Notes: generated from the letters alone by a model not told the origin. 44,586 nt of DNA from Gemmatimonadales bacterium (GCA_035262265.1 DATFTG010000133.1:1-44586); one strand, 5' to 3'. Numbered from the stretch's first letter, positions 524-25,884 are shown. A program made the numbers and translations.

Positions 524-699
524 ACAACCTCCCGGTTGAGGTCTGGCAACGCCACCAGTCTACTACGTCGTCGACATCCGCGCCCGCTGGAGCGGCGTAC
601 ATCTGGTAGAGCGGCCGTCCGCGTTCCGTTGCTGAGCCCCGGCGTTGCGGGCATCTTCGGACGCATGTGGTGCTTGCGACACTCACGCCGCGGAGCGTG

Positions 700-1299
700 A
701 TGGCGACGCTGCCGAATGTCCCGGTTCCCGACTCACAACTCGTGAGTCGCATGGCCGCGGGGGAGGATGCTGCCCTGGGCGAGCTGTACGATCGCTACGG
801 GAAGATGGTGTACGCGCTGGCGCTGGCGATCGTGCGCGAGCCCGCGGACGCCGAGGAGGTCGTGGTCGACGCGTTCGGGCAGGCGTGGCGACAGGCGGCG
901 TCCTTCGATGCGACCCGGGGGAGCGTCGGCGCCTGGCTCGCCACCATCGCCCGCAGCCGAGCCCTCGACACCGTGCGCGCCCGCGGCCGGCGGGTCCGCG
1001 CGCACGAGCGGGCCGCGCTCCTCTCCGACGAGGGTCTCGCCGCGCCGATCACGACGGCCGGCAGCGATCCGTCGCGGGGCGTGGAACGCACCGAAGCCCG
1101 GCGGCTCGTGTCCCAGGCCCTGGCGGCCTTGCCCGGCCCGCAGCGGACGGCGATCGAGCTGGCTTACTTCGAGGGCCTGTCGCAGAGCGAAATCGCCGAG
1201 CGCCTCGCCGAGCCCTTGGGCACGGTCAAGACGCGCATCCGCACCGGCATGGAAAAACTGCGTGGCCTCCTGGGCCCGCTGCTGGAGGGTGCGGCATGA
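700..1299 (+). CDS. ECF-type RNA polymerase sigma-70 family factor
   Basis: Region 2 (GELYDRYGKMVYALALAIV...AEEVVVDAF) and region 4 HTH (LSQSEIAERLAEPLGTVKTRIRTGMEKLR). ATG at 700 is preceded by GGAG; an alternative GTG lies at 667. Confidence 0.9.
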   Translation: MATLPNVPVPDSQLVSRMAAGEDAALGELYDRYGKMVYALALAIVREPADAEEVVVDAFGQAWRQAASFDATRGSVGAWLATIARSRALDTVRARGRRVRAHERAALLSDEGLAAPITTAGSDPSRGVERTEARRLVSQALAALPGPQRTAIELAYFEGLSQSEIAERLAEPLGTVKTRIRTGMEKLRGLLGPLLEGAA

Positions 1300-2066
1300 C
1301 GTCCCACGAGTGGCAGGAGCAGGCGGCGCCCTACGCGCTGGGCATCCTCGCACCCGAGGAGCGCCGCGCCTTCGAGGTCCACCTCGCCGGTTGCGACGAG
1401 TGCCGGGCCGATGTACGGGCCTACACGGAGGTCGCGGCGGCGCTGGCGCACGCCGCGCCGACCGCCGAGCCGCCAGGCGCCCTGCGCGATCGGGTGCTGG
1501 CGGAGGCGCGGCGCGTCCGTCCGATCGGGGCCGGGGCACGGGAGCCTCGCCGGGCGCGGCTCCCCTGGCTCGCCGCTGCCGCCGCGCTGTTGCTCGCCGC
1601 AGGTGGCGCGATGGCGACGTGGCGGCTGACGACCCGCGTCCACGACCTCGAGCGGAGCCTCGCCGTGCGAGACTCGGTGCACGCGGCGGACTCGGCCGCG
1701 CTCGTGCTCCTCACCGGACCGGACGTCAACGTCGTCTCACTCGCCGGGACCAACCGGGCGCCCTCGGCGCGAGTCATCTGGAACCATGCACTGAACCGCT
1801 TTGTCGTCTTCGCGTTCGATCTGCCGGCGGCGCCGGCGGGCCGGACATACCAGTTGTGGGCCATCGCCAAGGGCCGTGCCCCGCTGTCGATGGGCACCTT
1901 CAACACCGACGGTCAGGGTCGTGCCCGGGTGGTGCTCACCGTCGACCGGCAGATCGCGGCACTGGGCTTCGTGGAGAACTGTGGTCTCACCGAGGAGCCG
2001 AGCGGCGGATCACCCCAGCCGACCGAGACGCCGCGGCTCCTGGGCGCGTGGCGGCCCACCGACTAG
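1296..2066 (+). CDS. anti-sigma factor: zf-HC2 N-terminus, one TM segment, RskA-like extracytoplasmic domain
   Basis: ATGA start/stop overlap with the sigma gene. H-x3-C-x2-C motif (VHLAGCDEC). TM segment LPWLAAAAALLLAAGG. C-terminal YQLWAI motif typical of the RskA domain. Confidence 0.85.
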   Translation: MTSHEWQEQAAPYALGILAPEERRAFEVHLAGCDECRADVRAYTEVAAALAHAAPTAEPPGALRDRVLAEARRVRPIGAGAREPRRARLPWLAAAAALLLAAGGAMATWRLTTRVHDLERSLAVRDSVHAADSAALVLLTGPDVNVVSLAGTNRAPSARVIWNHALNRFVVFAFDLPAAPAGRTYQLWAIAKGRAPLSMGTFNTDGQGRARVVLTVDRQIAALGFVENCGLTEEPSGGSPQPTETPRLLGAWRPTD

Positions 2067-2094
2067 ACGACCCTCCTCCAATCCGGTGAGCCGC

Positions 2095-2141
2095 GACGGG
2101 CGTAGAGACGATGTTCGTGCTCTACGCCCGTCGTCCTTTTT
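2095..2141 (+). terminator. intrinsic terminator hairpin (13-bp perfect stem plus T-tract)
   Basis: GACGGGCGTAGAG-12 nt-CTCTACGCCCGTC followed by GTCCTTTTT. It ends 5 nt before the AAGGAG SD of the next gene. Confidence 0.6.
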
Positions 2142-2157
2142 GTCGAAGGAGACTTTC

Positions 2158-2859
2158 ATGAAGCGGCTCGTGATTGCGGCCATCGTTCTCGCCTGCGCCG
2201 CCGGTGGCGTGGGGATCGCCCTCGCGTCGGACCATCAGGACACCCCCGACGTCGAGCTGAATCCTTCCATGGACATGACCGACCTGTACGTGTTCCCGAG
2301 CCCGACGCCGGGACGCGTCGTACTGGTCATGAACAGCTGGGGGGTGCTCACGCCGGCTGAAACGCCGACGACCTATTTCGATCCCAACATCCTGTACCAG
2401 TTCAAGATCGACACCAATCACGACGGCGTTGAAGACAAGGTCATCCAGGTGACGTTCACCGGCGCCGGGCACGACCAGACGGTCGAGGTGCGCGGGCCTG
2501 TCGCGCCGCCGGTCGTGGGTGCCATGGGGAACACGATCGCCCGGACGACGCCCCGGATCACCGGAGCCACCCGCACCACGCTCGGCTCCACCTCCGGTGT
2601 CCAGGTGTACGCCGGCCCGCGTGACGATCCGTTCTTCATCGACCTGGAGCAGTTCTTCCGCATCATCCCCGACCGCAAGCCGGTCACCGGTGCGCTGTCG
2701 CAGCTGCCCGACACCCCGACGGCGTCGGCGTGGCGCACGCCAGGCATCGATTTCCTCGCTGGCTTCAACGTGCTCTCGATCGTGATCGAGCTGCCGCTGG
2801 CCGACCTGACCGGCGGCGCCGGCCCGAACTTCGGTGTCTGGGCCACGATCAGCCGCTAA
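2158..2859 (+). CDS. secreted DUF4331-family protein, N-terminal half
   Basis: AAGGAG SD and a signal peptide. Motifs SDHQDTP...DMTDLYVFPSP, YQFKIDTNHDG, GPRDDPFFIDL and NVLSIVIELP match the DUF4331 N-terminal pattern. Confidence 0.8.
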   Translation: MKRLVIAAIVLACAAGGVGIALASDHQDTPDVELNPSMDMTDLYVFPSPTPGRVVLVMNSWGVLTPAETPTTYFDPNILYQFKIDTNHDGVEDKVIQVTFTGAGHDQTVEVRGPVAPPVVGAMGNTIARTTPRITGATRTTLGSTSGVQVYAGPRDDPFFIDLEQFFRIIPDRKPVTGALSQLPDTPTASAWRTPGIDFLAGFNVLSIVIELPLADLTGGAGPNFGVWATISR

Positions 2860-2887
2860 CCGAACAACGCTTACAAGGAGTCCTGCG

Positions 2888-3430
2888 ATGACCTGGACGA
2901 CATTCTCCCGGCGGCTCGGCCCTGCCGTGCTCGCGGTCCTGCTGGCGGCGGCCTGCAGCGACGACAACACGACCGCTGCTCCGACCGACCGCGCGTTCAA
3001 TCAGGTGCAGCGCCTCGGCAATCCCCTCGTCTCCGAGGTGTTCCTGGCGAAGCGTGATCACGCGTTCCATGGATCGACCGCACCGACGATCGACGTCGCG
3101 GCCTTCACGCCAAGCATCCGCAGCTTCGCCGACAACGTCGCGGGTCGCGACTCGACGGTGGGGAAGACGCTCGCCGCCGTCCTCCTGCCGGACGAGCTGC
3201 TGGTGCAATCCGACAAGGACACCGCATCGGCGGGATGGCTGACGTGGGCGCTCGCCAACGGTTGGGGTGGGCGCAAACTGACCGACGACGTCGTGACCGC
3301 CGGTCTGCAGGCGATCTTCGGGGCTCTGCTCGATCCGAACAATACGTCGCCCGGACTGTCCGATGACCACGTCGATGCGAACGATGTCCCGTTCAGCCCG
3401 ACGTTCCCGTACCTCGCCGTCGCGCACTGA
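2888..3430 (+). CDS. lipoprotein corresponding to the C-terminal half of DUF4331
   Basis: Own AAGGAG SD, own signal peptide and lipobox (LAAAC|S). RLGNPLVSEV and C-terminal NDVPFSPTFPYL motifs as in the C-terminal part of DUF4331. Confidence 0.7.
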   Translation: MTWTTFSRRLGPAVLAVLLAAACSDDNTTAAPTDRAFNQVQRLGNPLVSEVFLAKRDHAFHGSTAPTIDVAAFTPSIRSFADNVAGRDSTVGKTLAAVLLPDELLVQSDKDTASAGWLTWALANGWGGRKLTDDVVTAGLQAIFGALLDPNNTSPGLSDDHVDANDVPFSPTFPYLAVAH

Positions 3431-3440
3431 GGTCAGACGC

Positions 3441-4709
3441 ATGCGCGCGGTGGTGCGGAAGCCGGCCGTCGTCACCCTGTCCGTGGGTCTGCTGCTCGCG
3501 GCGGGGTGGCTCGGCACCGCGGCGTGGGCCGGTGAGCGGCGGCGCGCGCCGCTGCGCGATGAGGCCCGAATCCGCGATCTCGATATCGGCTTTTTCGAGC
3601 GGCGCCTGGCGCGCGACCCGTCGAGCGCCTACGACCTCGCCCGGCTCGCCGCACTGCACCTGCAGCGTGGTCGCGAGCACGGCAACCCGACCGACGTCGT
3701 CCGCGCCGAGCAGCTGGCCCGGACGTCCCTGGCGAGCCGCGCGACACGCAATGCGAAGGGGTATTCGACCCTCGTTGCGACACTGATGACGGAGCATCGC
3801 TTTATCGAGGCGCGGGCTGCCGCGCAGCGGTTGCTGGCGCTCGACTCGACGAGTGTTCCTTCTCGAGCAACGCTCGCCGAGATCGAGATGGAGCTGGGCG
3901 ATTACGATGCCGCCCGGGTCATGTTCGGCGCCCTGTACACCCAACGGGCCAGTGTGGCGGTGGCGCCGCGGCTGGCGCGCTGGCTCGAGCTCCAGGGACA
4001 GGTCGAGGAAGCCCGGCGTTTGCTCACGGCGGCGCTGGACAGTGCGCGGGCAAATCCGAGAATGCCGCGCGAGCAGCTCGCCTGGTTTCACCTCCGCGTC
4101 GGTGACCTGGAGCTGCGTGAGGGGCAACCGGGGAGCGCTGCGCGCGCCTATCGCGCCGGCCTCGCGGTGTCGCCTCACGACGCGCGGCTCCTCGCCGCCC
4201 TGGCGCGGGTCGCACGGGCGCGGGGGCAGTGGCGGCAGGCGATTCGCTACGGCGAGCAATCGATCGCCATCGCCCCCGACCCCGCGACCCTCGGGCTCAT
4301 CGGCGACGCCTACACCGCCATCGGAGACTCGGCGCAGGCCGGAGAGTACGTCCGCGCGATGGAAGCCGTGACATTCGCGCAGCCCGGCGGCTTCCACCGG
4401 GCGTGGAGCCTCTTCCTGCTGGATCACGGGCTGCGCGTGCCCGACGTGCTCGCCCAGGTGCAGGCGGAGATCCGCACGCGGCCCGACATCTACGGCTGGG
4501 ACCTCCTCGCCTGGGCGCTGCACCGATCGGGACGGGACCGCGACGCGCTGCCCGCGATGGCGCGCGCGCTGTCGCTCGGGACGCGCGACGCGATGCTGTA
4601 CACCCACATGGCCGTGATCGAGCGCGGCCTCGGCCACCGCGTGGCCGCGCAGCAGTACTTCGGCCAGGCGCACGACACCGACCCCTACTGCCCATGTCCG
4701 AGCTCCTAG
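3441..4709 (+). CDS. membrane-anchored tetratricopeptide (TPR) repeat protein
   Basis: N-terminal hydrophobic anchor followed by repeated A/L/Y/G helical TPR-like units. 10-nt gap to the upstream gene. Confidence 0.75.
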   Translation: MRAVVRKPAVVTLSVGLLLAAGWLGTAAWAGERRRAPLRDEARIRDLDIGFFERRLARDPSSAYDLARLAALHLQRGREHGNPTDVVRAEQLARTSLASRATRNAKGYSTLVATLMTEHRFIEARAAAQRLLALDSTSVPSRATLAEIEMELGDYDAARVMFGALYTQRASVAVAPRLARWLELQGQVEEARRLLTAALDSARANPRMPREQLAWFHLRVGDLELREGQPGSAARAYRAGLAVSPHDARLLAALARVARARGQWRQAIRYGEQSIAIAPDPATLGLIGDAYTAIGDSAQAGEYVRAMEAVTFAQPGGFHRAWSLFLLDHGLRVPDVLAQVQAEIRTRPDIYGWDLLAWALHRSGRDRDALPAMARALSLGTRDAMLYTHMAVIERGLGHRVAAQQYFGQAHDTDPYCPCPSS

Positions 4710-5296
4710 CGTTCATCCAGCTGGGATTCCATCACATCGTGAATCCCGAAGCCGCCGATCACATCCTCTTTCTGCTGGCGCTCGCCGCGATCTACCGACC
4801 GCGCGACTGGCGCAACGCATTGTGGGTGGTCACGGCCTTCACCGCCGGCCATTCGATCACCCTCGCCCTGGCGGTGACGAACGCGCTCACTCTGCCGACC
4901 GCCTGGATCGAGTTTCTCATCCCGGTGACGATCGTCGCCACGGGAATCGAGAATTTGGTGGTGCGCGATCGCACCCGTACCCTACGCGGTGGGCGTTACC
5001 GCCCGGTGCTGTCCGGCGTGTTCGGACTGGTGCACGGCGCCGGGTTCGCCAACTACCTGCGCAGTCTGTTCGTGACCCGGGTCGCCATTCCGCTCTTTGG
5101 GTTCAACGTGGGCATAGAATTGGGGCAGATTCTCGTGCTTGCTGTTGCGGCGGTGGCCTTCGTCGCGATCGACCGTGTCCTCGAGCACGTCGGCCGGAGG
5201 GTGGCGGGAGCGGCGCTGCGCTGGCGGGTAGTGGGCATCTCGGCTGCGGTCATCGCAGTCGCGACACGGTGGGCAGCGCAACGGGCCCCGTGGTGA
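4694..5296 (+). CDS. HupE/UreJ-like (HupE_UreJ_2 type) integral membrane protein
   Basis: GFHHI...ADHILFLLAL...TAFTAGHSITLAL motifs and multiple TM helices. 16-nt overlap with the TPR gene. Confidence 0.75.
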   Translation: MSELLAFIQLGFHHIVNPEAADHILFLLALAAIYRPRDWRNALWVVTAFTAGHSITLALAVTNALTLPTAWIEFLIPVTIVATGIENLVVRDRTRTLRGGRYRPVLSGVFGLVHGAGFANYLRSLFVTRVAIPLFGFNVGIELGQILVLAVAAVAFVAIDRVLEHVGRRVAGAALRWRVVGISAAVIAVATRWAAQRAPW

Positions 5297-5754
5297 TCGT
5301 CGCGCAGGTCATGCTCGGAGCGTTGGCAGTTCTTCCGGCGCATCCGTTGCATACGACACTCACGACGGTGACGTGGCACGGCGACCGTGGCGAGCTCGAG
5401 GTTGCCGTGCGCGTCTTCACGCAGGACCTGGCGGACGCAGTTACGAGCGTACCGGGCTCGCCCGCCACCGGCAGCTCCGTATCCGCGGCGTGCCGGTATG
5501 CGGCGGCTGCGGTGTCGGTGCGCGACGCTGCTGGGGCCTCCCTTCCCGTGGCACGCTGCGTCACCGAGCGCGCCGCCGATGTCACTTGGATCCGATTGGC
5601 CGTCCCCGTTCAACGACGGGAGGGACTGCGGCTGCGCAACGCGTTTCTGTTCGAGCGGTTCTCCGATCAGGTCAACATCGTCCAGTCCGACGTCGCTGGG
5701 GACATGCATACCATCCTCTTCACATCCCGTGACGGTCCCAAACCGCTCATGTGA
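5293..5754 (+). CDS. DUF6702-like exported protein
   Basis: GTGA overlap with the permease stop (alternative ATG at 5311). HPLHTTLTTVTW...LEVAVRVFTQDLADAV resembles the HP-x-H...E-x-x-x-R-x-F-x-DDL signature of DUF6702. Confidence 0.55.
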   Translation: MIVAQVMLGALAVLPAHPLHTTLTTVTWHGDRGELEVAVRVFTQDLADAVTSVPGSPATGSSVSAACRYAAAAVSVRDAAGASLPVARCVTERAADVTWIRLAVPVQRREGLRLRNAFLFERFSDQVNIVQSDVAGDMHTILFTSRDGPKPLM

Positions 5755-5758
5755 ACGC

Positions 5759-5787
5759 TTGACGCCCGTACAACCCACACGTAGTAA
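5759..5787 (+). promoter_or_regulatory. sigma-70-like promoter candidate (TTGACG-17 nt-TAGTAA)
   Basis: Hexamers and 17-nt spacing read directly. About 120 nt upstream of the PQQ dehydrogenase start. Confidence 0.35.
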
Positions 5788-5905
5788 GGAAAGATGACCA
5801 CGTCCCGGAACGCAGGGACGGCGTCCTCTGCCCCTCCCTGCCGATTCCGTGCATGGCGTGCCCAGCTGGTGCAGCGCCGCAGTCGGAACTTCCTCGGAGG
5901 TGCAT

Positions 5906-7621
5906 ATGACGGATCCGGCTCGATGGTGTGCCGTCGTGGCGGCAGCCGGTCTCGCGGTCGCCCCGCTGGCCGCACAGGGCTCGGCCAGTGCGCTGTCGCC
6001 CCACACCTCGGTCACGAACGACATGTTGGTTCAGGCGCAGCAGTCGGGCGACTGGCTGATGTACGGCGGGAACTACTGGAACAACCGCTACTCGCCGCTG
6101 ACGACGCTCAACACGACGAACGCGAAAAACCTGGTGCCGCGCATGGTGTTCCAGACCGGGACCGAGAGGCTGGGGAGCCTCGAGACCACGCCGCTGATCG
6201 TGAACGGGGTCATCTACCTCACGAGTCCCGTCGCGCCCAACAACATCGTGAAGGCCTACAGCCTGCGTACCGGCAAGCTGCTGTGGACCTTCGAGCACAA
6301 GACCGACGCCAAGTCGTTCGCGGTCGCCTGCTGCGGGCCGAACAATCGCGGCGTCGCCATCGCCAATGGTCTGGTCTACATCGGCACACTCGACGGCATG
6401 CTCATCGCGCTCGACCAGCAGACCGGCACTGAGAAATGGACGGCGCAGGTCGGCGACCCCGGGGCGGGGTACACCGAGACGATGGCCCCGCTCGTCGTGG
6501 GCGACAAAGTGATTATCGGGACCTCCGGAGGAGAGTACGGCATCCGGGGCTTTCTCAAGGCGTTCAACGGTACGACCGGCGCCCTGGTGTGGACCTGGTA
6601 CACGATTCCCTCACCGCAGGAAGGCGGCTGGTGGGGCGTGTGGGCGAAAGCGACGCCGGATGGCGCCGATCTGCATCGCGACGTCGCCGCCGAGAAGGCC
6701 GACTCGGCGAAGTACGCCGACTCTTGGCAGTACGGCGGCGGGGGCATCTGGATGACGCCGGCGTATGATCCTGAGACCCAGACGCTGTATGCCGCGATCG
6801 GCAACCCATCCCCCGATCTGGACGGCAGCATTCGCCCCGGCGACAATCGCTGGACCGACGGCATCGTCGCGATCGACGCCACCACCGGAAAGTTCAAGTG
6901 GGGCTACCAGACGGTGCCGCACGACGTGTGGGATCTCGACGCCGTGAGCCCGCCCGTCATCGCGATGGTCGGTGGAAAGAAGGTCGTCGTGCACGCCGGC
7001 AAGACGGGGTGGGTCTACGTGCTCGACGCCGCGACCGGCGCGCTGGTGCGCCGCTCCGACGCGTTCGTGCCCCAGGAAAACATGTTCGCGTTGCCCTCCG
7101 CTGCGGGAACCCGGATGCTGCCGGGCGCGAACGGCGGCTCGGAATGGTCGCCGATTGCCGTCAACCCCACTCTCGGCTTCGCCTACGTCGTGGGGCTGCA
7201 CCAGCCGATGAACTACATCACCCACTCCGCCCCTTACTCGTCGCCGAAACTGTGGCTGGGGAGCGCGTTCGTGGCGATTGCCGGTGAAGGGCAGTGGGGC
7301 AACGTCTCCGCCGTGAACCTCGCCACCGGCAAGATCATGTGGCAGATGAAGACGGAGCAGCCGATGATCGGCGGCGCTACCGCGACCGCCGGCGGCCTCG
7401 TGTTCACGGGCGAGGGCAACGGCTGGTTCAAGGCGTACGACGCGAAGAGCGGCGCCGTCCTGTGGCAGTTTCAGTGCGGCGCGGGCGTCAACGCGGCGCC
7501 GGCGGTTTTCTCGATGGACGGTGAAGAGTTCGTCGCCGTGGCCGCAGGCGGCAACTTCCAGCTGCGCTACGCGCTGGGCGACGCAGTCTTCATCTTCGGC
7601 TTGCCGAAGGCGGGGAAGTAG
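5906..7621 (+). CDS. periplasmic PQQ-dependent dehydrogenase, methanol/ethanol family (XoxF/PedH-like)
   Basis: GGAGG SD and a signal peptide. Vicinal Cys-Cys (AVACCGPNNRG; TGC TGC at 6329-6334). Repeated propeller W-motifs. Active-site PHDVWDLDAV (GAT CTC GAC at 6932-6940). Confidence 0.9.
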   Translation: MTDPARWCAVVAAAGLAVAPLAAQGSASALSPHTSVTNDMLVQAQQSGDWLMYGGNYWNNRYSPLTTLNTTNAKNLVPRMVFQTGTERLGSLETTPLIVNGVIYLTSPVAPNNIVKAYSLRTGKLLWTFEHKTDAKSFAVACCGPNNRGVAIANGLVYIGTLDGMLIALDQQTGTEKWTAQVGDPGAGYTETMAPLVVGDKVIIGTSGGEYGIRGFLKAFNGTTGALVWTWYTIPSPQEGGWWGVWAKATPDGADLHRDVAAEKADSAKYADSWQYGGGGIWMTPAYDPETQTLYAAIGNPSPDLDGSIRPGDNRWTDGIVAIDATTGKFKWGYQTVPHDVWDLDAVSPPVIAMVGGKKVVVHAGKTGWVYVLDAATGALVRRSDAFVPQENMFALPSAAGTRMLPGANGGSEWSPIAVNPTLGFAYVVGLHQPMNYITHSAPYSSPKLWLGSAFVAIAGEGQWGNVSAVNLATGKIMWQMKTEQPMIGGATATAGGLVFTGEGNGWFKAYDAKSGAVLWQFQCGAGVNAAPAVFSMDGEEFVAVAAGGNFQLRYALGDAVFIFGLPKAGK

Positions 7622-7627
7622 CGGGGC

Positions 7628-8155
7628 GTGAGGCCGGCCGCAGCACTCGGGGTGCTGGGAGTCCTGGCACGGGCGCTCGCCGCCCAGTCGGACTCCCTGC
7701 CCCGGATCGACACCACCTGGCTGGTGAGCGATGTCCCCACCAGGACCGTCCAGTTCCGGATGGTCGCAGGGCTTTCCGGGTTGAACGGTGCTCTGAATTT
7801 CAACGGGTTCGGTGACGGTGGTCTCACGTTCACTGTGCCCACCGGCTGGCATGTCGTCATCCACTTCATCAATCACGACGGAATACTGTCCCATTCCGCC
7901 GAGGTGATTCCCGATGGGCCGGTGCCGATGACGGGTGCCACGACCCCGGCGTTCCGTCGGGCGGTGACGCTGAGACTGCAGGAAGGGCTCACCGCGACGG
8001 AGCACGACGACATGAAGTTCGTCGCCGATTCGGCGGGGTCCTATCTGGTCATCTGCGGCGTGCCGGGGCACGCGGCGGCCGGAATGTGGATCCGCTTCGA
8101 AGTCGAAACGGGCGCCGAACGACCGTCGCTGACCGCAACGCCTCGGAAACGCTGA
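7628..8155 (+). CDS. sulfocyanin-like type-1 (blue) copper protein (cupredoxin)
   Basis: Signal peptide. FNFNGF-like stretch. Cu ligand set H (ILSHS)...C-x2-P-G-H-x4-M (ICGVPGHAAAGMW). 6-nt gap after the dehydrogenase stop. Confidence 0.75.
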   Translation: MRPAAALGVLGVLARALAAQSDSLPRIDTTWLVSDVPTRTVQFRMVAGLSGLNGALNFNGFGDGGLTFTVPTGWHVVIHFINHDGILSHSAEVIPDGPVPMTGATTPAFRRAVTLRLQEGLTATEHDDMKFVADSAGSYLVICGVPGHAAAGMWIRFEVETGAERPSLTATPRKR

Positions 8156-8283
8156 ACGCGAGGTTGCTGCCTTCCTGGCAGGTGCGCCCTAGCATTTCAT
8201 GAGCAGGAATGGCAGGGGGGTTTCCTTCCAAAGAAAAACGTCCATCCTTGCGGGGTTTCCCACCTTCATCCGGGAGGGATGAC

Positions 8284-9471
8284 ATGAAGCGAGTTCTCGG
8301 AGCGTTGCTGTGCGTGGCGCTCGGGCTTGCGGGATCCGCTCGTGCGCAGGGCCTCACGATGCAGATGTCGAACGGTTGGTCGTTCTCGTTCGCCGGGAAC
8401 GTCAACGCCTTCCTCGCATACCAGCATCTGGACTCCACCGGCGCTGTAGGCAGCCCGGGTACGGCGGTGGGGACCGCTCCAACCGGAACGTCGCGCATCC
8501 GCACGGGATTGTTGCCCGCCTTCGCCACCTTCGATGCCAAGGGCAAGGAAGGCAACTTCAATCTCGGCGTGCATTTCGGCTTTGCGCCGGAAATCCAATG
8601 CGACGGGGGTGTGCACGATTGCTCCGGAGCGCAGATGGACATGCGCCAGGTCTTCCTGACGATCGGCGGCCCGTGGGGGCAGATTCTCGCGGGACGTGAG
8701 CTGGGTGTGTTCGGGCGGCAGAACATCCTCAACGACCAGACGCTCTTCGGCATCGGAGCCGCCGGCAACCCGCTGGGCGGTGGTACGACGCTCGGGCGCA
8801 TCGGCTTCGGCTACAACTACCCGAATTTCGTGTCGCAGGTGACGTATTCGTCACGGACAGATCGGCCGACGGTGTTCTCGATCGGGGTGTTCGATCCGTC
8901 CTTCAATGGCGCCTACACCTCACTGCAGATTCCCCGACTCGAGAGCGAAATCACCTTCAGCCGCCGGCAGCACAAGTTCTGGGTGGGTGGTTTGATGCAA
9001 ACCAACAAGGACATCGCCGGCAACAGCGCCACAGCATTCGGATTGTCGGGTGGCGTCCGGCTGGGCTTCAATCAGCTCAGCATCGTCGGCTCCGGGTTCT
9101 GGGGCAAGGGAATCGGGACGACATTCCTATTCGCCAACGGCACGGGCAATCACAGCGTGACCGGGGGCAACGACCTGCGGACGACATTCGGCTACATCGG
9201 GCAGGTTGCCTACACGCCGCGCGGGAGCAAGATGACTGTTGCCGCGAGCTACGGCGCCAACGTGCTGAAGAACGCCCAGGATGAGCAGGTTGGCGGCGCG
9301 GATGTCTTCCACACCGAGAACGGCCTGGTGTCGGGCGGCGTCTACTATCAGTGGACCAGGTCGCTGAAGTTCGTCGGTGAGCTCGACTACTCGTGGAGCA
9401 AGGAGACGGTGACGAACCCCAAGAAGAACACTTCGTTCTCACCGGCTGCCGGGTTGATGCTGTTCTTCTGA
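8284..9471 (+). CDS. outer-membrane porin (beta-barrel)
   Basis: Signal peptide (ARA|QG). Alternating beta-strand pattern rich in G/Y/F/N. C-terminal aromatic residue (...LMLFF). Confidence 0.65.
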   Translation: MKRVLGALLCVALGLAGSARAQGLTMQMSNGWSFSFAGNVNAFLAYQHLDSTGAVGSPGTAVGTAPTGTSRIRTGLLPAFATFDAKGKEGNFNLGVHFGFAPEIQCDGGVHDCSGAQMDMRQVFLTIGGPWGQILAGRELGVFGRQNILNDQTLFGIGAAGNPLGGGTTLGRIGFGYNYPNFVSQVTYSSRTDRPTVFSIGVFDPSFNGAYTSLQIPRLESEITFSRRQHKFWVGGLMQTNKDIAGNSATAFGLSGGVRLGFNQLSIVGSGFWGKGIGTTFLFANGTGNHSVTGGNDLRTTFGYIGQVAYTPRGSKMTVAASYGANVLKNAQDEQVGGADVFHTENGLVSGGVYYQWTRSLKFVGELDYSWSKETVTNPKKNTSFSPAAGLMLFF

Positions 9472-9486
9472 GCAGGACGCCGCCGG

Positions 9487-9527
9487 GGAGCGGCCACGGA
9501 TTGCCGTGGCCGCTCCGTTTTCTTTTC
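9487..9527 (+). terminator. intrinsic terminator after the porin gene
   Basis: GGAGCGGCCACGG-attg-CCGTGGCCGCTCC followed by GTTTTCTTTTC. Confidence 0.7.
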
Positions 9528-9554
9528 GACCTTCTGCATCCGAGTGTCCATTCG

Positions 9555-9968
9555 ATGCGCTACCGGGCTCTGGCCCTCGTCGGTCTGGCGATCGCCTGCG
9601 CGAGTTCGAGTTACACCGTGACAACGACGGCGGCCGTGCCGAAACCCGTCGCCGACGTCTACGCGTGCCTGCGCGCCGCGATCACCCCCATCGGCTACAC
9701 CCAGACGTCGTACGACGTCGCGTCGCATCGCCTGACGGCGCGGCGCTATAACGAGACCGTCCGCCGGCCGGATGTGCGGTTCCGCCGCATGGTCGATGAG
9801 CTGGAAATCGAGGTCCGGCCCGACAGCGGCGGACGGAGTGCGATCGGCGTGGCGGCGCGGACGTTCGCCGAATACATGACCGAGCGCGGGCAAACCCTGG
9901 TCCAGGAAGCCGCCTCGGACAGCGTCCAAGCCGCGGGACAGGCGGTGTTCGCGGCCTGCGGACGCTGA
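9555..9968 (+). CDS. lipoprotein, function unknown
   Basis: Lipobox LAIAC|AS. Protein-like composition. Confidence 0.55.
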   Translation: MRYRALALVGLAIACASSSYTVTTTAAVPKPVADVYACLRAAITPIGYTQTSYDVASHRLTARRYNETVRRPDVRFRRMVDELEIEVRPDSGGRSAIGVAARTFAEYMTERGQTLVQEAASDSVQAAGQAVFAACGR

Positions 9969-10627: not shown

Positions 10628-10843
10628 TCACTTGTAGCGATACGTGATGCGCCCCCGCGTCAGGTCATATGGGGAAAGGTCCACGGCGACGCGATCTCCC
10701 TGGAGGATGCGGATGTAATTCTTCCGCATCTTCCCGCTCACGTAGGCGAGGACTTCGTGGCCGTTCTCCAGCTTGACTCGAAACGTCGTATTGGGGAGGA
10801 CTTCGGTCACCGTCCCCATCATCTGAATCGCGTCACCAGCCAA
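10628..10843 (-). CDS. infA: translation initiation factor IF-1
   Basis: Aligns along its whole length with E. coli IF-1 ([43 protein letters not shown]...). The start codon read from the sequence is TTG. Confidence 0.95.
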
Positions 10844-10947
10844 CTGTCAAAATCCTTTCGAGTGGTGCCCAAATGTAGCCCTCCCCCGCCTGTCTTGACA
10901 CTCCCCGGGTGTGGCGTATCTCTTGCTAGCGGAGGAGGTTAAAGCCC

Positions 10948-11223
10948 ATGGACGATTCCCAGCTCAAGCGCCTCGCCGATATCGCGGTTGACGTCGTGCG
11001 GCCCGAAGGCAATGGTTTTGCGTTGAGTGGGCAGGGTTCGGACCGGGGTGAGTACCGCCTCGACGTGCATTTCGACATGCCGCTCGATGCGCGGACCCGG
11101 GCGGTCCTGGGCGGTCTCCTGGCGCAGTCCGAGCTGACCCTGTGGCGCCGGGCTCCGGCGGTGACGCCCGCGCGGCGTGAGCGCGCTCACCGCCCCCGCC
11201 GCCGTCGCGTCACGGCCGACTGA
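10948..11223 (+). CDS. hypothetical protein with an Arg-rich tail
   Basis: GGAGGAGG SD upstream of the ATG. No recognisable domain. Confidence 0.4.
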   Translation: MDDSQLKRLADIAVDVVRPEGNGFALSGQGSDRGEYRLDVHFDMPLDARTRAVLGGLLAQSELTLWRRAPAVTPARRERAHRPRRRRVTAD

Positions 11224-11268
11224 TTGCAGCGCCGGCTATCCTGGGCAGCTACGCCAGAGAGGACTAGG

Positions 11269-12621
11269 ATGAGGCCTTTCCGCTTGGGTGTCTTCGTCAC
11301 CCTGGTGCTGGGTGCGACGCTCGCCGCTTGTGCCGGTGGTGCTGTGGGCACGACGCAGCTCAGCCCCGCCGATTTGAGCGCGCTCGAAGCTCAACGTACA
11401 CAGCACCCCACCGATCCCGACCTCAACCTGCGTCTCGCCAAGGCGTACTACGCCGCCAACCGGTTCGCCGATGCCCGTAAGGCCCTGGGCGTCGTGCTCA
11501 CTCAACAGCCGAACAATCGCGTCGCCGAGACCTACCTCGGGCTCAGCTATGAGGGGATGGAGCAGTTCGACTCGGCACGGACCATCTATACCTCGTTGCT
11601 CGCCACGAAGCCCTCGGGAGAGGTCGGCCGGCTCTTGAATGGTCGTCTCACGCTCCTGGCCCGCAAGGAGCTGCACGCCTCCGCCCGGGCGTCCCTGGCG
11701 CGCGAAACGGAGCTGTCGCGGACGCCGCCCGATCCCAACACAGTGGCGGTATTCCCGTTCCGGTATACGGGGCAGGACACGACCTTGCGGCCGTTGGAGC
11801 GCGGCCTCGCGGCGCTGGTGGTGAGCGATCTGTCGCACGTGCGGCGGCTGCGCCTCGTGGAGCGCGAGCGGCTGCAGGCGCTGATCGACGAGATGAAGTT
11901 GGCCGCGAGCGGCCGCGTCGACCCCGCGACAGGCGCGCGCTCCGGGCACCTCGTTGGTGCGGGCCAGGTAGTGCAGGGCCAGTTCCAGGAAGCGCCCGGC
12001 ACAAACATCCGCCTCGACGCGACGATGGTGCGCGCCGGCGACGCCCAGATCGCGGCGACCGGGTCGGGCCGCGACGCTCTGTCGCAGCTGTTCGATCTCG
12101 AAAAATCGGTGGTGTTCCAGCTCCTGACCAAGACGGGCGTTCCCATTTCGCCCGCCGAGAGCATCGCCATCAGCGAGCGGCCCACCAGGGACCTGCAGGC
12201 GTTCCTGCTCTACAGCCGCGGGCTCGAGTCGCAGGACAAGGGTGACTTCCGCGCGGCCGGTGCGGATTTCAAAGCCGCGGCGCAGCGCGATCCGACTTTC
12301 CAGGCGGCGGTGCAGCAGTCGCAGTCGAGTGAGGCCGCGTCCTCGGCGAGCGGTACGCCCGACAACACCCTGGCCGCGGTGATCGGCGGCGGGACCGGGG
12401 CGCCGAGCGGCGGCGCGCCGACCACCGGCACCACGCAGGCGCTGCAGCAGGGGATCAACACGACGGTGCCGAGCGGCACCACCATCTCCGATCAAGTGGG
12501 GAGCAACCCGACCAGTCAGCCCCGCACGGATCCCGTGTGCGAGGCTGCCAACTGTCAGGGGTTGCCGAAAGGCGGGCCGGCGTTGATCGGGACCATCATC
12601 ATCATCATCAAACGGCCATAG
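11269..12621 (+). CDS. lipoprotein with TPR repeats and a CsgG/LpoB-like module
   Basis: Lipobox TLAAC|AG. TPR-like N- and C-terminal parts. Central VAVFPFRYTG...VSDLSHVRRLRLVERERLQALIDEMKL pattern. Low-complexity tail ending in IIIIIKRP. Confidence 0.65.
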   Translation: MRPFRLGVFVTLVLGATLAACAGGAVGTTQLSPADLSALEAQRTQHPTDPDLNLRLAKAYYAANRFADARKALGVVLTQQPNNRVAETYLGLSYEGMEQFDSARTIYTSLLATKPSGEVGRLLNGRLTLLARKELHASARASLARETELSRTPPDPNTVAVFPFRYTGQDTTLRPLERGLAALVVSDLSHVRRLRLVERERLQALIDEMKLAASGRVDPATGARSGHLVGAGQVVQGQFQEAPGTNIRLDATMVRAGDAQIAATGSGRDALSQLFDLEKSVVFQLLTKTGVPISPAESIAISERPTRDLQAFLLYSRGLESQDKGDFRAAGADFKAAAQRDPTFQAAVQQSQSSEAASSASGTPDNTLAAVIGGGTGAPSGGAPTTGTTQALQQGINTTVPSGTTISDQVGSNPTSQPRTDPVCEAANCQGLPKGGPALIGTIIIIIKRP

Positions 12622-12632
12622 GAGCGCGGCCC

Positions 12633-13742
12633 ATGCGCATCCGGTTCATTGTCTTCGCCGCCGCGCTCGCGAGCCCGCTGGCCGCCCAGGGCAACACCGC
12701 GCTGTACTCGAGCTGGAGCGGCCTCGGCGGGTTCGACTATCAGCGTTACGGGTTCGACAAGGGATACGTCGTGCACAGCGGTGCGCAATGGAGTCTTCCC
12801 CTGGTGCTCGTCGCACCACTGGGAGCCCATGCGTCGGTCGACCTGACGACCCATTACGCGCATACCGAGGTGACCGACTCCGCGTCGCTGGTGCATTCGG
12901 GTCTCACCGATACGCAGCTGCGCCTGCTCTACACGATCGGCGCGCAGCGGGCGGTGGCGTCCATCTCCGTCAACCTCCCGACGGGGAAGCATTCGTTCCC
13001 AACCGACTCGTTTCGCGTGGCCAGCGGCGTCAGCTCGACCTACCTCTCGTTCCCGGTCAACAGCCTGGGCAGTGCGTTCGGCGTGACGACCGGGTTGGCG
13101 TACGCGACTCCTGCCGGGAAATGGAATCTCGGCCTGGCGGGGAGTGTTCGCTTCCAGGCGAACTATCACCCGTTCACGAACGACAGTCTCAACTACAAGC
13201 CGGGCCTCGAGGGGCGCCTGCGGCTCGGCGCCGACCGCCTAGTGGGCGAGCGGGGGCGGCTGCTCTTCGGGTTGACCTTCTCGACCTTTTCGACCGACGA
13301 GTTCTCGGGCGTGAGCAGCAGCGGGCTCGGGCCGTTCAATCCGGGGTCCCGCTTCATCACCGAATTCGGCTACGCCTACTCGTGGGGCCGGACGAGCCTC
13401 ACATTCGGGGCGTGGGACTACTACCGGATGGCGGGGAGCTCGGGTGCCACTACGTTGGGCGACACGAAAGAGAACGTCTTCAACACGGAAATCCGGGTGG
13501 CGCGCCAGCTATCGCCACGCTTCGCGATCGAACCGCTCGCCGCCTTCCGCCAGTGGAGTCCCGCCGACATTCGCGGCGGGCGGTTGTACAGCTTCGGCAC
13601 GAACCTGCGCTTCGGATTGAACGATCGGTGGTCCGGAGTCGCCAGCGGCCGCTTCGGCACCGGTTGGATCTTCGATCCTTCGGCCGGCCGCTCCGACGTA
13701 ACCGCTACGGGACTCTCGCTCTACCTGCGCTATCAGCAGTAG
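12633..13742 (+). CDS. outer-membrane beta-barrel protein, function unknown
   Basis: Signal peptide (PLAAQG). Alternating strand pattern. 11-nt gap to the upstream lipoprotein gene. Confidence 0.6.
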   Translation: MRIRFIVFAAALASPLAAQGNTALYSSWSGLGGFDYQRYGFDKGYVVHSGAQWSLPLVLVAPLGAHASVDLTTHYAHTEVTDSASLVHSGLTDTQLRLLYTIGAQRAVASISVNLPTGKHSFPTDSFRVASGVSSTYLSFPVNSLGSAFGVTTGLAYATPAGKWNLGLAGSVRFQANYHPFTNDSLNYKPGLEGRLRLGADRLVGERGRLLFGLTFSTFSTDEFSGVSSSGLGPFNPGSRFITEFGYAYSWGRTSLTFGAWDYYRMAGSSGATTLGDTKENVFNTEIRVARQLSPRFAIEPLAAFRQWSPADIRGGRLYSFGTNLRFGLNDRWSGVASGRFGTGWIFDPSAGRSDVTATGLSLYLRYQQ

Positions 13743-15859: not shown

Positions 15860-16977
15860 TCGCTCGCCTCCGCCACCAGCCGGCCGTTCCGGACGATCGC
15901 GATCGTCAGCGGCTTCCCGCGCACGTCACCGCTCGAGTCGAACGCGATCCGCCCGGTGACGCCTTCGTACGCCGGCCTGCTGCTGCCGACGCTCGCCAGG
16001 TAATCCCGGATCGCCCGGCGGTCGGGGCCGACGGTATCGAGCGCCGCCTTCAACAGCTGGAAGACATCGGTGGTGAGACCGGCGACGTCGTTGGGACGTT
16101 GCCCCTGGGTGGCGCGGAAGTAATCGACCACGAACCTGCCGTTCTGGTCGCCCTGGCGGTCGGGGAGGTAGGCGGAGGAAATGTGAATCCCCTCCGCCAG
16201 CGCTCCGTCCGCTTCGATGCCGACGAGCGCATCGCTCCCGACCACCGGCCATTGCAATCCCTGACGGCGCATCTCCCGTAACGCCTGCTCGGCGCCGGGG
16301 ACGTCCGTCGCCAGCATCAGGACGTCCACCCCGGAGCGCTTCATACGGGAGAAATAGGGCTCGAGTGAGCCGGTCGTGGGAAGGAAGGGATCCTCCTCGA
16401 CCACCACTCCGCCGAGTCGCGTGAACTCCGTTGCGAACGCCTGACGCACACCGCGGCCGTAATCGTCGTTCAGATACAGCACCCCCGCGCGCTGCGCGCC
16501 GAACTTCTGGCGGGCGAACCGCGCCAGGGCGGGGCCATGCGACAGGTCGCTGGGGCAGACCCGGAACGCGTAGCGGCTGATCCCCGACAGCTCCGGACTC
16601 GAAGCGGTGGGTGAGACCATCGCGATGGGGTCGCTGCCGGCGCCGTACACCCGCGCCGCGGCGATGCTCGTTCCCGAGGTGATGTGCCCGACGACGGCGA
16701 CGATGGACCCGTCGTCGCGGAGCGCCTGGGCGGCGAGCACCGCGCCGTTCTCGGTGCCGCTGTCATCCAGCACGCGCAGCTGCAGCCGGCGGCCGCCGCG
16801 GACGCCGCCATGCTGGTTGATCTGGTCGACGATGTAATGCGCCGCGCGCTGCTCGGAGACGCCCAACGGGTCCCGCAGCGGTCCCGCGAGGCCGATGACG
16901 ATCGGGCCGGTCTCGCGTACGCACGCCGCGGTCGAAAGGGCTGCGACGGCCAGGAGGAAGCGGAAACGGACGCGCAT
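15856..16977 (-). CDS. LivJ/Peripla_BP_6-type periplasmic solute-binding lipoprotein
   Basis: Start taken at ATG 16977 (MRVRFRFLL...LSTAAC|V lipobox). IVIGLAGPL...[18 protein letters not shown]...VVGHITSG pattern. Its stop overlaps the MCP start by 4 nt. Confidence 0.85.
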
Positions 16978-24832: not shown

Positions 24833-25884
24833 TCGCTCGATCCGCGATAGGGCCGGCGATGATCCAGCTGCCAGACGCGCTTTTGCGAGATGAGTCCTTC
24901 TGTGAACGCGTCCGCATCGCGCAGCGCCTCGGCCATGCTCGCGGTCTTCGCGCTGGCATTGTCAGCCCAATGCAACACCTCTGCTTCGAGCGTCAGCGGC
25001 AGCACGGGACTGCCGTGCTCCAACCGGCCGTGATGTGACAAGATGAGGTGCAACAACAGCTGTCGCTCTTCGGGTGTGCACGGGGGGGCCGGCTCCTCGT
25101 TGAGGCGCCGCTCCAGCATGAGCGCGCCGAGCGTGACGTGTCCCAGCAGGTAGTGCTGGTCGGTGTAGCCGAACACTCCGTCCCAGCGGTAGGCGTCGAG
25201 CTTGCCGATGTCGTGCAGCAGCGCCCCCGCCAGCACCAGCTCCGGATCGGCCCCCGCGGCGCGCGCGATGGTACGGGCGATGGCGCCGACCTCGACGGTG
25301 TGGGTGAGCAGGCCGCCGAGCGTAGCGTGGTGACCGGAGACGCTGGCGGGGCACGCCCCGAAGCGCTGCCGGAAGTCGGCGTCCTCGAAAAACAGGGCGA
25401 GCACGGCTCGCAGTCGCGGCTTCGCCAGCTCGGCGCGCCACGAATCCACCGTTTCCCAATAGCGGGTGACGTCCCCGACGCTCGGGAGCAGGCGTCCCAG
25501 CTCGGCGGTACTCGGCGGCAGTACGCGGAGCGAGCTGACGCGCAGCTGGCGGTGACCGCGATAGTCGGCAACCTCACCCAGCACCTGGACCACATGTCCC
25601 GGCCGGATCCCCTCGACCATCGCCTGCTCGCGGTCCCAGAACGGGGCGCTGGTGAGCCGGCCGGTCGCGTTACCGAACGTCAGTACCGTGCACCAGCCGC
25701 CCTCGAAGCTGCGCTGCTCGGCGTCGAGCACCAGCAGAGTGTCCTGCACCCGCTCACCGGGCTGGAGGGACGGGAGGTCGAGGACGCGGGAGGGCGGGGG
25801 GGTCGGGGGGGCCGGCATGGGAGCGGGGGAAATATAGGGGAGCGGCAATTGGGGAGTGGTACCAATCGTTGCACGGCGTAGCAC
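24802..25884 (-). CDS. OB-fold plus HD-domain protein (YhaM-like 3'-5' exoribonuclease family)
   Basis: N-terminal OB fold (VLTFGNATGRL...VQVLGEV). HD motifs HHATLGGLLTHT, LLHDIGK and ILSHHG. The start may instead be ATG 25818. Confidence 0.8.
   Translation of the reverse strand: MLRRATIGTTPQLPLPYISPAPMPAPPTPPPSRVLDLPSLQPGERVQDTLLVLDAEQRSFEGGWCTVLTFGNATGRLTSAPFWDREQAMVEGIRPGHVVQVLGEVADYRGHRQLRVSSLRVLPPSTAELGRLLPSVGDVTRYWETVDSWRAELAKPRLRAVLALFFEDADFRQRFGACPASVSGHHATLGGLLTHTVEVGAIARTIARAAGADPELVLAGALLHDIGKLDAYRWDGVFGYTDQHYLLGHVTLGALMLERRLNEEPAPPCTPEERQLLLHLILSHHGRLEHGSPVLPLTLEAEVLHWADNASAKTASMAEALRDADAFTEGLISQKRVWQLDHRRPYRGSSDWGIANQDLR

Follow-up and report, generated by a model that had tools for sequence, protein, structure and literature searches.

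What is encoded where a dedicated extracytoplasmic function (ECF) sigma factor, a small inner-membrane permease and several exported proteins without established roles lie in one run of genes? The question arises from a contig of 44,586 nt from a Gemmatimonadales bacterium (GCA_035262265.1, DATFTG010000133.1; hereafter the window; G+C content 65-72%), in which ten co-directional open reading frames (ORFs) span positions 700-9471. The original prediction, made from the sequence of this stretch, described ten packed genes and suggested a signal-controlled module for the acquisition or insertion of metal. We found that the conserved unit consists of seven genes (700-5754), encoding a sigma factor, an RskA-type anti-sigma factor, the two halves of a DUF4331 protein (DUF4331-N and DUF4331-C), a tetratricopeptide repeat (TPR) protein, a HupE_UreJ_2 permease and a DUF6702 protein. 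With moderate confidence, we read this unit as an envelope system for the capture and import of a trace metal of the Ni/Co/Cu class under the control of an ECF18/19-type sigma factor. The elements of the unit, referred to as the cassette, are as follows:

576-601, plus strand: ECF-type promoter motif of the sigma gene, cATCC-N16-CGTAca (exact ATCC-N16-CGTA match)
700-1299, plus strand: ECF sigma factor, SigK-like (ECF18/19 clade), 199 amino acids (Sigma70_r2 and r4_2)
1296-2066, plus strand: RskA-type anti-sigma factor (zf-HC2, RskA_C and one transmembrane helix at residues 89-107 by hydropathy)
2080-2106, plus strand: ECF-type promoter of the DUF4331 operon, AATCC-N16-CGTAGA (motif match and conservation in relatives)
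2093-2142, plus strand: hairpin (42 nt, 2093-2134) followed by a T-run (-34.2 kcal/mol, z = -5.6)
2158-2859, plus strand: DUF4331 N half, soluble, 233 amino acids (PF14224, 125 bits; profile positions 1-90 and further stretches)
2888-3430, plus strand: DUF4331 C half, lipoprotein with lipobox LAAAC, 180 amino acids (PF14224, 56 bits; profile positions 246-420)
3441-4709, plus strand: TPR protein, exported or membrane-anchored (TPR families)
4694-5296, plus strand: HupE_UreJ_2 inner-membrane permease, 200 amino acids (PF13795, 150 bits, cut-off 24.5; hydropathy)
5293-5754, plus strand: DUF6702 periplasmic protein (PF20420, 67.7 bits, cut-off 24)

All junctions named by the original prediction were confirmed in the sequence: an ATGA overlap at 1296-1299, gaps of 28 nt (2860-2887) and 10 nt (3431-3440), a 16-nt overlap at 4694-4709, a GTGA overlap at 5293-5296 and a 6-nt gap at 7622-7627. 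Every family assignment was reproduced by Pfam searches with scores above the curated cut-offs (27 bits for gathering in the case of PF14224), and the export signals on the products were found as described. The picture of ten packed genes held for their common direction and these junctions, and not for the extent of the unit. A 91-nt gap containing a promoter and a terminator hairpin separates the anti-sigma gene from DUF4331-N, and we therefore count at least two transcription units, probably three. Further downstream, homology with the metagenome-assembled genome (MAG) locus L079 moved the probable start of the pyrroloquinoline quinone (PQQ) dehydrogenase gene to the ATG at 5906 and that of the porin gene to the ATG at 8284; the resulting upstream gaps of about 151 nt and 128 nt mean that neither is a coupling-type junction.

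Conservation of the cassette was followed by a genome scan with patterns derived from an alignment of 14 sequences (an alignment of 45 sequences was too diverse for patterns), which yielded 80 further loci. These were annotated with purpose-built profiles and comprise 64 loci from Gemmatimonadota and 16 from other phyla. The seven-gene order is kept in contigs whose DUF4331-N proteins share 81%, 72% and 67% identity with that of the window, in three different flanking contexts. L007 (MAG SMAG_U9373, same species, DUF4331-N 97% identical) carries the same ten genes, whereas a TonB-dependent receptor follows the cassette in L002 and an opposite-strand peptidase follows it in L004. The predicted conservation of gene order was thus borne out for the seven genes, which recur across Gemmatimonadota; the PQQ dehydrogenase, cupredoxin and porin genes fall outside the conserved unit. 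Within the phylum, HupE_UreJ_2 and DUF6702 follow in 31 of 46 loci, and the sigma/RskA pair is placed upstream, downstream or on the opposite strand.

How is the cassette controlled? The sigma factor has no domains besides sigma-2 and sigma-4 (Sigma70_r2 at residues 29-98, r4_2 at residues 135-187). Its best NCBIfam models are PRK12519 (174 bits) and SigK PRK09646 (149 bits), both below their cut-offs; the SigK model NF007228 demands 226 bits, so that the subfamily threshold is missed. The gene directly 3' of it, joined by the ATGA overlap, encodes an RskA-like protein with a cytoplasmic HxxxCxxC zinc finger (HLAGCDEC; zf-HC2, E = 5.5e-8), followed by the transmembrane helix and a periplasmic RskA_C domain (80 bits against a cut-off of 29; NF052375, 171 bits against 100). 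Coupled sigma and RskA genes and an anti-sigma factor with a ZAS-type zinc finger, one transmembrane helix and RskA_C are shared with the SigK-RskA systems of ECF18 and ECF19, as are the ATCC ... CGTA promoter type and the presence of an autoregulatory promoter copy. In contrast to those systems, the sigma factor scores under the curated SigK cut-off and has no counterpart of the SigK C133/C183 pair: cysteine is absent from all of its 199 residues. Such a pair occurs in 94% of the members of ECF18 and in 56% of those of ECF19 (PMC7509140). The regulons also differ, being MPT70/83 in mycobacteria and DUF4331, TPR and a metal permease here. L002 has another ECF sigma/RskA_C pair (669-1825), 7 kb upstream of its cassette, whose anti-sigma factor has no zf-HC2 match.

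Upstream of both 700 and 2158, where the original prediction had proposed to look for a promoter of the sigma factor's group, we found the same motif. Four exact ATCC-N16-CGTA matches occur in the window against 0.61 expected, two of them at 576-599 and 2081-2104; those at 16257 and 32529 both lie inside opposite-strand genes and were rejected as promoters. In all four loci first compared, AATCC-N16-CGTA(G/C/A)A stands 5' of both the sigma gene and DUF4331-N. The exact motif lies at most 400 nt upstream of the SDH codons of the mature protein in 43 of 52 DUF4331-N genes from Gemmatimonadota (background 0.022 per 400 nt), and the flanking bases are conserved too (cAATCCGaT ... GGCGTA). It also precedes the sigma gene in L002, L004, L005, L007, L008, L039, L044, L079 and, in the cyanobacterium Cylindrospermum, L087. 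Both window motifs match the ECF18 consensus of the ECF Hub (-35 xGCATCC, -10 xxCGTATx; PMC13492112), which is consistent with the RskA-type partner and with the SigK-like best models, below cut-off as they are. The motif before both genes supports dedicated control of the conserved cassette by the ECF/anti-sigma pair, and the copy at 576-601 predicts autoregulation of the sigma factor. In L004, an extra exported protein of 193 amino acids without a Pfam match, possibly a small outer-membrane barrel, is encoded between rskA and DUF4331-N (9381-9962); there the ECF motif precedes the gene of this protein and not DUF4331-N.

About ten loci carry a second, oppositely facing copy of the motif. This divergent copy faces a TonB-dependent receptor gene in L023 and L029, and such a receptor also lies 3' of the cassette in L002 and L079. 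The best-supported reading is that TonB-dependent receptors are part of the regulon in relatives. Control of envelope import by an ECF sigma factor and its membrane-bound anti-sigma factor, with TonB-dependent receptors included in relatives, recalls FecI/FecR-controlled TonB uptake. Unlike in that system, the anti-sigma factor is of the RskA and not the FecR type, and no receptor is encoded within the window.

The promoter of the DUF4331 operon is embedded in a terminator: its -10 element lies in the left arm of the hairpin at 2093-2134. The same arrangement is present in L002, L007, L008, L010 (twice), L037, L039, L044 and L079, and the hairpins differ by one compensatory exchange (GAG/CTC to GAC/GTC). 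The hairpin would terminate read-through from the sigma and rskA genes, while transcripts begun at the ECF promoter would not contain its left arm and would pass it. Expression of the operon would therefore be strictly sigma-dependent. In L010, the DUF4331-N/DUF4331-C pair is present as a tandem duplicate (6842-9644), each copy with its own identical promoter-hairpin element.

What do the controlled genes do? The permease carries the His motifs GFHHI, ADH, GHS and VHG, common to its relatives in L065 and L090, and has no N-terminal capture domain; in the window, the corresponding first-position His (His1) belongs to DUF6702, which is a protein of its own. Mature DUF6702 is predicted to begin with His-Pro-Leu-His (LPA/HPLH), and this first His is invariant in 35 of 35 relatives. 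In the family, high-affinity binding of Ni, Co and Cu is ascribed to His1, His28 and His32. According to a 2025 study, the affinity of PaDUF6702 is 5.6 pM for Ni and about 3 nM for Co and Cu, the N-terminal His left by signal-peptide cleavage being part of the binding site, and HupE/UreJ-2 permeases fused to His1 "anglerase" (Ang) domains, which bind Cu at nM affinity, are proposed to be a metal capture-and-import device (PMC12537917). HupE/UreJ proteins are importers where tested, as that study cites from Brito 2010. The DUF6702 neighbours it lists include none of HupE_UreJ_2, DUF4331, TPR or sigma factors. The statement of the original prediction that these families have no established function consequently stands for DUF4331 (and for the TPR protein) and falls for DUF6702 and HupE/UreJ-2, for which this biochemistry is published.

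Because of the invariant His1 and the bare permease, the coupled DUF6702 and permease pair looks like an unfused anglerase device. Both share the permease family PF13795, a periplasmic beta-sandwich protein with His first after the signal peptide (invariant in the DUF6702 proteins here), and the proposed periplasmic capture with subsequent hand-over to the permease. In the cassette, however, DUF6702 and permease are separate, translationally coupled genes, and two conserved partners and a dedicated regulator are added. The combination of a small His-rich permease with exported helpers, and of a metal read from context, also resembles the Ni/Co transporters (HupE/UreJ, the NiCoT proteins HoxN and NixA, and RcnA-RcnB efflux); it differs from them in its ECF sigma control and in that no urease, hydrogenase or B12 synthesis gene, NikR or B12 riboswitch lies nearby.

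The two added partners are DUF4331 and the TPR protein. DUF4331 is a family of 2,478 clusters at 50% identity (E <= 0.001) in at least five phyla, for which no NCBIfam name exists; our literature search found no paper mentioning DUF4331, PF14224 or IPR025566. No single chain of about 400 amino acids covers the whole profile in the window. Two genes encode the protein in 62 of the 64 loci from Gemmatimonadota, as they do in 8 of the 16 from other phyla, and the C half has its own signal peptide and Cys in nearly all split forms, those of Armatimonadota included; a frameshift or sequencing error was rejected on these grounds. With its own signal peptide and lipobox cysteine, the C half points to a stable two-chain form.

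In DUF4331-N the signal peptide is followed by a predicted mature Ser-Asp-His (SDHQDTP, invariant in 33 relatives). More widely, all 83 of the diverse members whose N-terminus is intact have (S/A)-D-H-x-(D/E)-x-P directly after the signal peptide, with A, G or S at -1. An amino-terminal copper- and nickel-binding (ATCUN) motif consists of a free N-terminal amine, any first residue, a residue other than Pro at position 2 and His at position 3, and binds Cu(II) or Ni(II). From the conserved sequence, the mature N-terminus of DUF4331, X-Asp-His, is predicted to form such an ATCUN-like Cu/Ni arrangement. KIDxNxDGxED, similar to a calcium loop, and RDDPFF are likewise invariant. The AlphaFold2 model of DUF4331-N (mean predicted local distance difference test score, pLDDT, 68.6) has a confident beta-sandwich core. 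A sequence search of the PDB found no relative of DUF4331-N or of DUF6702, and a heme- or sugar-binding beta-sandwich fold, suggested by weak Foldseek matches (TM about 0.25), was not adopted for DUF4331.

The TPR gene lies directly 3' of DUF4331 in 48 of the 51 Gemmatimonadota loci long enough to tell. The same holds for Chloroflexota and for 14 of 15 loci that belong to Armatimonadota, Eremiobacterota, cyanobacteria or an unclassified MAG; no TPR gene was seen in the sole Planctomycetota locus, L080. DUF4331 and TPR are thus the deep core of the cassette. The TPR protein of the window ends in DPYCPCPSS (4674-4709); this Cys-Pro-Cys tail is present only in the window species and L007, is absent from other relatives, and was rejected as a metal site. 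Outside Gemmatimonadota, the DUF4331-TPR pair adjoins metal permeases in four other phyla, and the type of permease changes with the lineage:

Nostoc, Phormidium, Cylindrospermum and Chthonomonadaceae: protein of about 500 amino acids with HP(L/M)GNF after the signal peptide and a C-terminal NicO domain
Capsulimonas: canonical NiCoT (E = 1.5e-85), 2 kb downstream of DUF4331-TPR
Armatimonas (L065) and Limnocylindria (L090): HupE_UreJ_2 with an N-terminal extension, His first after the signal peptide
P0488 contig: HupE_UreJ_2 of the same extended length (404 amino acids), N-terminus not read

The periplasmic N-domain of the NicO fusions (L083, 10546-12036; L081, 10564-12138; L066, 10848-12371) comprises about 230 amino acids and has no Pfam match. 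Homology between this His1 domain and DUF6702 was rejected (hhalign probability 0.3%), the two being analogous only; since they are unrelated, His1 capture has been taken up on more than one occasion. In Cylindrospermum stagnale PCC 7417 (CP003642; L087, 6236-7119), a divergent sigma/RskA pair stands beside the DUF4331-TPR-NicO cluster, which lies downstream. The pair shares an intergenic region with a Ferritin_2 gene whose product has a twin-arginine translocation (Tat)-type N-terminus (RRKLIQ, read from the sequence). Exact AATCC-N16-CGTA motifs, two in number and pointing in opposite directions, occupy this region, and the Ferritin_2 gene stands behind one of them.

Could DUF4331 and TPR be unrelated to metals? 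They might, for instance, be an envelope-stress, lipoprotein-sorting or cell-surface maintenance pair of a SigK-type regulon that merely shares operons with small metal permeases. Actinobacterial SigK/RskA regulons do include secreted and surface proteins, MPT70 and MPT83 among them (PMC7509140), no similarity between DUF4331 and a metal-binding fold could be detected, and some DUF4331 genes stand alone (L088, L089). Against this, at least three kinds of permease from two Pfam families lie beside the pair in five phyla, for which chance is hard to invoke, and the strictly N-terminal, invariant X-D-H in all 83 members speaks for a role of the free N-terminus. We consider a role unrelated to metals very unlikely.

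We therefore favour metal capture and import, for which we propose the following sequence of events. At rest, the sigma factor would be held by its single-pass anti-sigma factor of the RskA type. An extracytoplasmic cue, presumably metal scarcity or the redox or metal state of the envelope, would free it, and the sigma factor would then transcribe its own operon from 576-601 and the genes for DUF4331-N, DUF4331-C, TPR, HupE_UreJ_2 and DUF6702 from the terminator-embedded promoter at 2080-2106. In the periplasm, DUF6702 would bind the metal via its N-terminal His and hand it to the HupE_UreJ_2 permease. Upstream of this step, two-chain DUF4331 and TPR may act as a capture or relay pair, the soluble DUF4331 half exposing its X-Asp-His N-terminus and the other half being lipid-anchored; in relatives, outer-membrane TonB-dependent receptors would belong to the same regulon. 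A more specific version, which we offer tentatively and hold to be possible rather than probable, is that DUF4331 is a periplasmic metalloprotein with a natural ATCUN-type X-Asp-His site that forms, with its obligate TPR partner, a periplasmic relay feeding the adjoining His1-domain Ni/Co/Cu permease, under ECF18-type sigma control in Gemmatimonadota and some cyanobacteria.

Several observations weigh against capture and import as we propose it. No permease adjoins DUF4331-TPR in 15 of 46 Gemmatimonadota loci. Among ten neighbouring ORFs scanned with Pfam (to about position 25,000), no gene for a Ni-, Co- or Cu-dependent enzyme was found except that of the cupredoxin described below. Signal-peptide cleavage sites, on which the X-Asp-His and His1 termini depend, were predicted by eye; the N-terminal motif and the C half of DUF4331 were modelled with low confidence, a model of a full-length cyanobacterial DUF4331 (pLDDT 58.3) was too poor for use, and Foldseek found no match in the PDB for the DUF4331-N model at E <= 0.001. 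Our literature search found no experiment on any gene of the cassette or on any DUF4331 protein. Finally, long cytoplasmic loops rich in His, of the kind seen in RcnA-type Ni/Co exporters, are present in the cyanobacterial NicO fusions and would fit transport in the other direction as well.

The last point raises the opposite possibility, protection from metal excess: the sigma factor would sense toxic metal in the periplasm, DUF4331, TPR and DUF6702 would buffer it, and the membrane protein would move it away from the sensitive compartment. Besides the RcnA-like loops, the naming of PaDUF6702 as a "sequesterase" (PMC12537917), the Tat-exported ferritin-like gene behind the same promoter motif in Cylindrospermum and the known occurrence of ECF groups with RskA-like anti-sigma factors beside heavy-metal resistance proteins (ECF290; PMC7826278) fit such a role. 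We judge it unlikely, however: TonB-dependent receptors, which are import devices, lie behind the motif or after the cassette in at least four relatives, a canonical NiCoT importer is found near DUF4331-TPR in Capsulimonas, the HupE/UreJ proteins covered by the cited tests are importers, and no efflux pump of the resistance-nodulation-division (RND), cation diffusion facilitator (CDF) or P-type ATPase kind is present in any cassette examined. Of the signal-controlled metal module originally predicted, envelope metal handling thus remains the best reading of the cross-phylum neighbourhoods; its purpose in acquisition rather than detoxification, and the metal itself, we infer from context.

Does the cassette serve the genes that follow it? 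Downstream of DUF6702, the co-directional run continues with three neighbours and is closed by a terminator:

5906-7621, plus strand: PQQ alcohol dehydrogenase (PF01011), neighbour and not part of the core
7628-8155, plus strand: type-1 copper protein, sulfocyanin/rusticyanin-like (SoxE, 58 bits, cut-off 21), neighbour and not part of the core
8284-9471, plus strand: outer-membrane porin (Porin_4; the ORF opens at 8209, likely start 8284), neighbour and not part of the core
9487-9526, plus strand: strong intrinsic terminator (13-bp stem with 11 GC pairs, then a T-run)

The dehydrogenase has XoxF and PedH as its best solved relatives and scores 451 bits with TIGR03075, just under the cut-off of 480. 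Its WDLDA aligns with WDFAG of the calcium enzyme MxaF, and the Asp in place of the MxaF Ala (D-x-D), two residues after the catalytic Asp, marks it as lanthanide-type. In the cupredoxin, C-x4-H-x4-M aligns with rusticyanin, and HS ... C-x4-H-x4-M provides the full type-1 ligand set (His, Cys, His, Met); it is likely the electron acceptor of the dehydrogenase. The three genes recur as a triad in L007 (9338-12958) and, after a TonB-dependent receptor, in the distant Gemmatimonadetes MAG L079 (13035-16653), and look like a self-contained periplasmic alcohol-oxidation unit with a blue-copper acceptor in place of cytochrome c. Beyond the triad, the window (10628-13742) shares synteny with L002 (15800-19011), where infA, on the minus strand, is followed by genes for a TPR-CsgG-like lipoprotein and for an exported, unannotated protein of 370-400 amino acids. 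From this shared downstream synteny, the triad lies between conserved flanks at the place where L002 has its TonB-dependent receptor. The neighbouring ORFs scanned encode, among others, a methyl-accepting chemotaxis protein (MCP), a periplasmic binding protein, a hydrolase, Kup and the CsgG-like lipoprotein; none of the ten encodes a metal regulator, and Rfam detected no riboswitch or other known RNA in the window.

The original prediction counted the triad as part of the cassette and saw an insertion module, supplying Cu to the cupredoxin or a lanthanide to the dehydrogenase. As a part of the cassette the triad did not hold up, since the only other cassettes that it follows are those of L007, which is the same species, and of L079. 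The idea of cofactor supply draws on the complete copper ligands, the lanthanide-type Asp, the position of the triad directly downstream in the window and L007 and, in L079, after a cassette that has diverged, and the presence of PQQ genes close to the cassettes of L050 and L076. The nM affinity of DUF6702 and Ang domains for Cu (PMC12537917) and an ATCUN-like N-terminus, which would favour Cu(II), agree with it as well. Yet most cassettes by far lack the triad: a PQQ gene was detected in just 4 of the 64 loci from Gemmatimonadota, roughly the level of chance in PQQ-rich genomes. No ECF motif precedes the PQQ gene, and about 151 nt lie between DUF6702 and its start. In cyanobacteria and Chloroflexota, DUF4331, TPR and a permease occur without a PQQ enzyme nearby. 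Trivalent lanthanides are not known to be substrates of HupE, NicO or NiCoT permeases, which further counts against this idea. We give supply of the adjacent enzymes little credence and retain import of a Ni/Co/Cu-class metal as the most likely function of the cassette.

The regulatory pair, the permease and DUF6702 are of known kinds. Their combination is undescribed, as are the DUF4331-TPR core, the predicted X-Asp-His N-terminus and the terminator-embedded promoter. Envelope supply of trace metals is well understood for ATP-binding cassette (ABC) and TonB systems and poorly for small secondary permeases such as HupE/UreJ and NicO, and next to nothing is known of metal physiology in Gemmatimonadota, bacteria that abound in soil. 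The cassette ties the just-characterised DUF6702 and its permease to two conserved partners without literature. If X-Asp-His binds Cu or Ni, DUF4331 would, to our knowledge, be the first large bacterial family built on an ATCUN site made by signal peptidase. The sigma factor, the defined promoter and the cross-phylum pattern make the function of DUF4331 directly testable.

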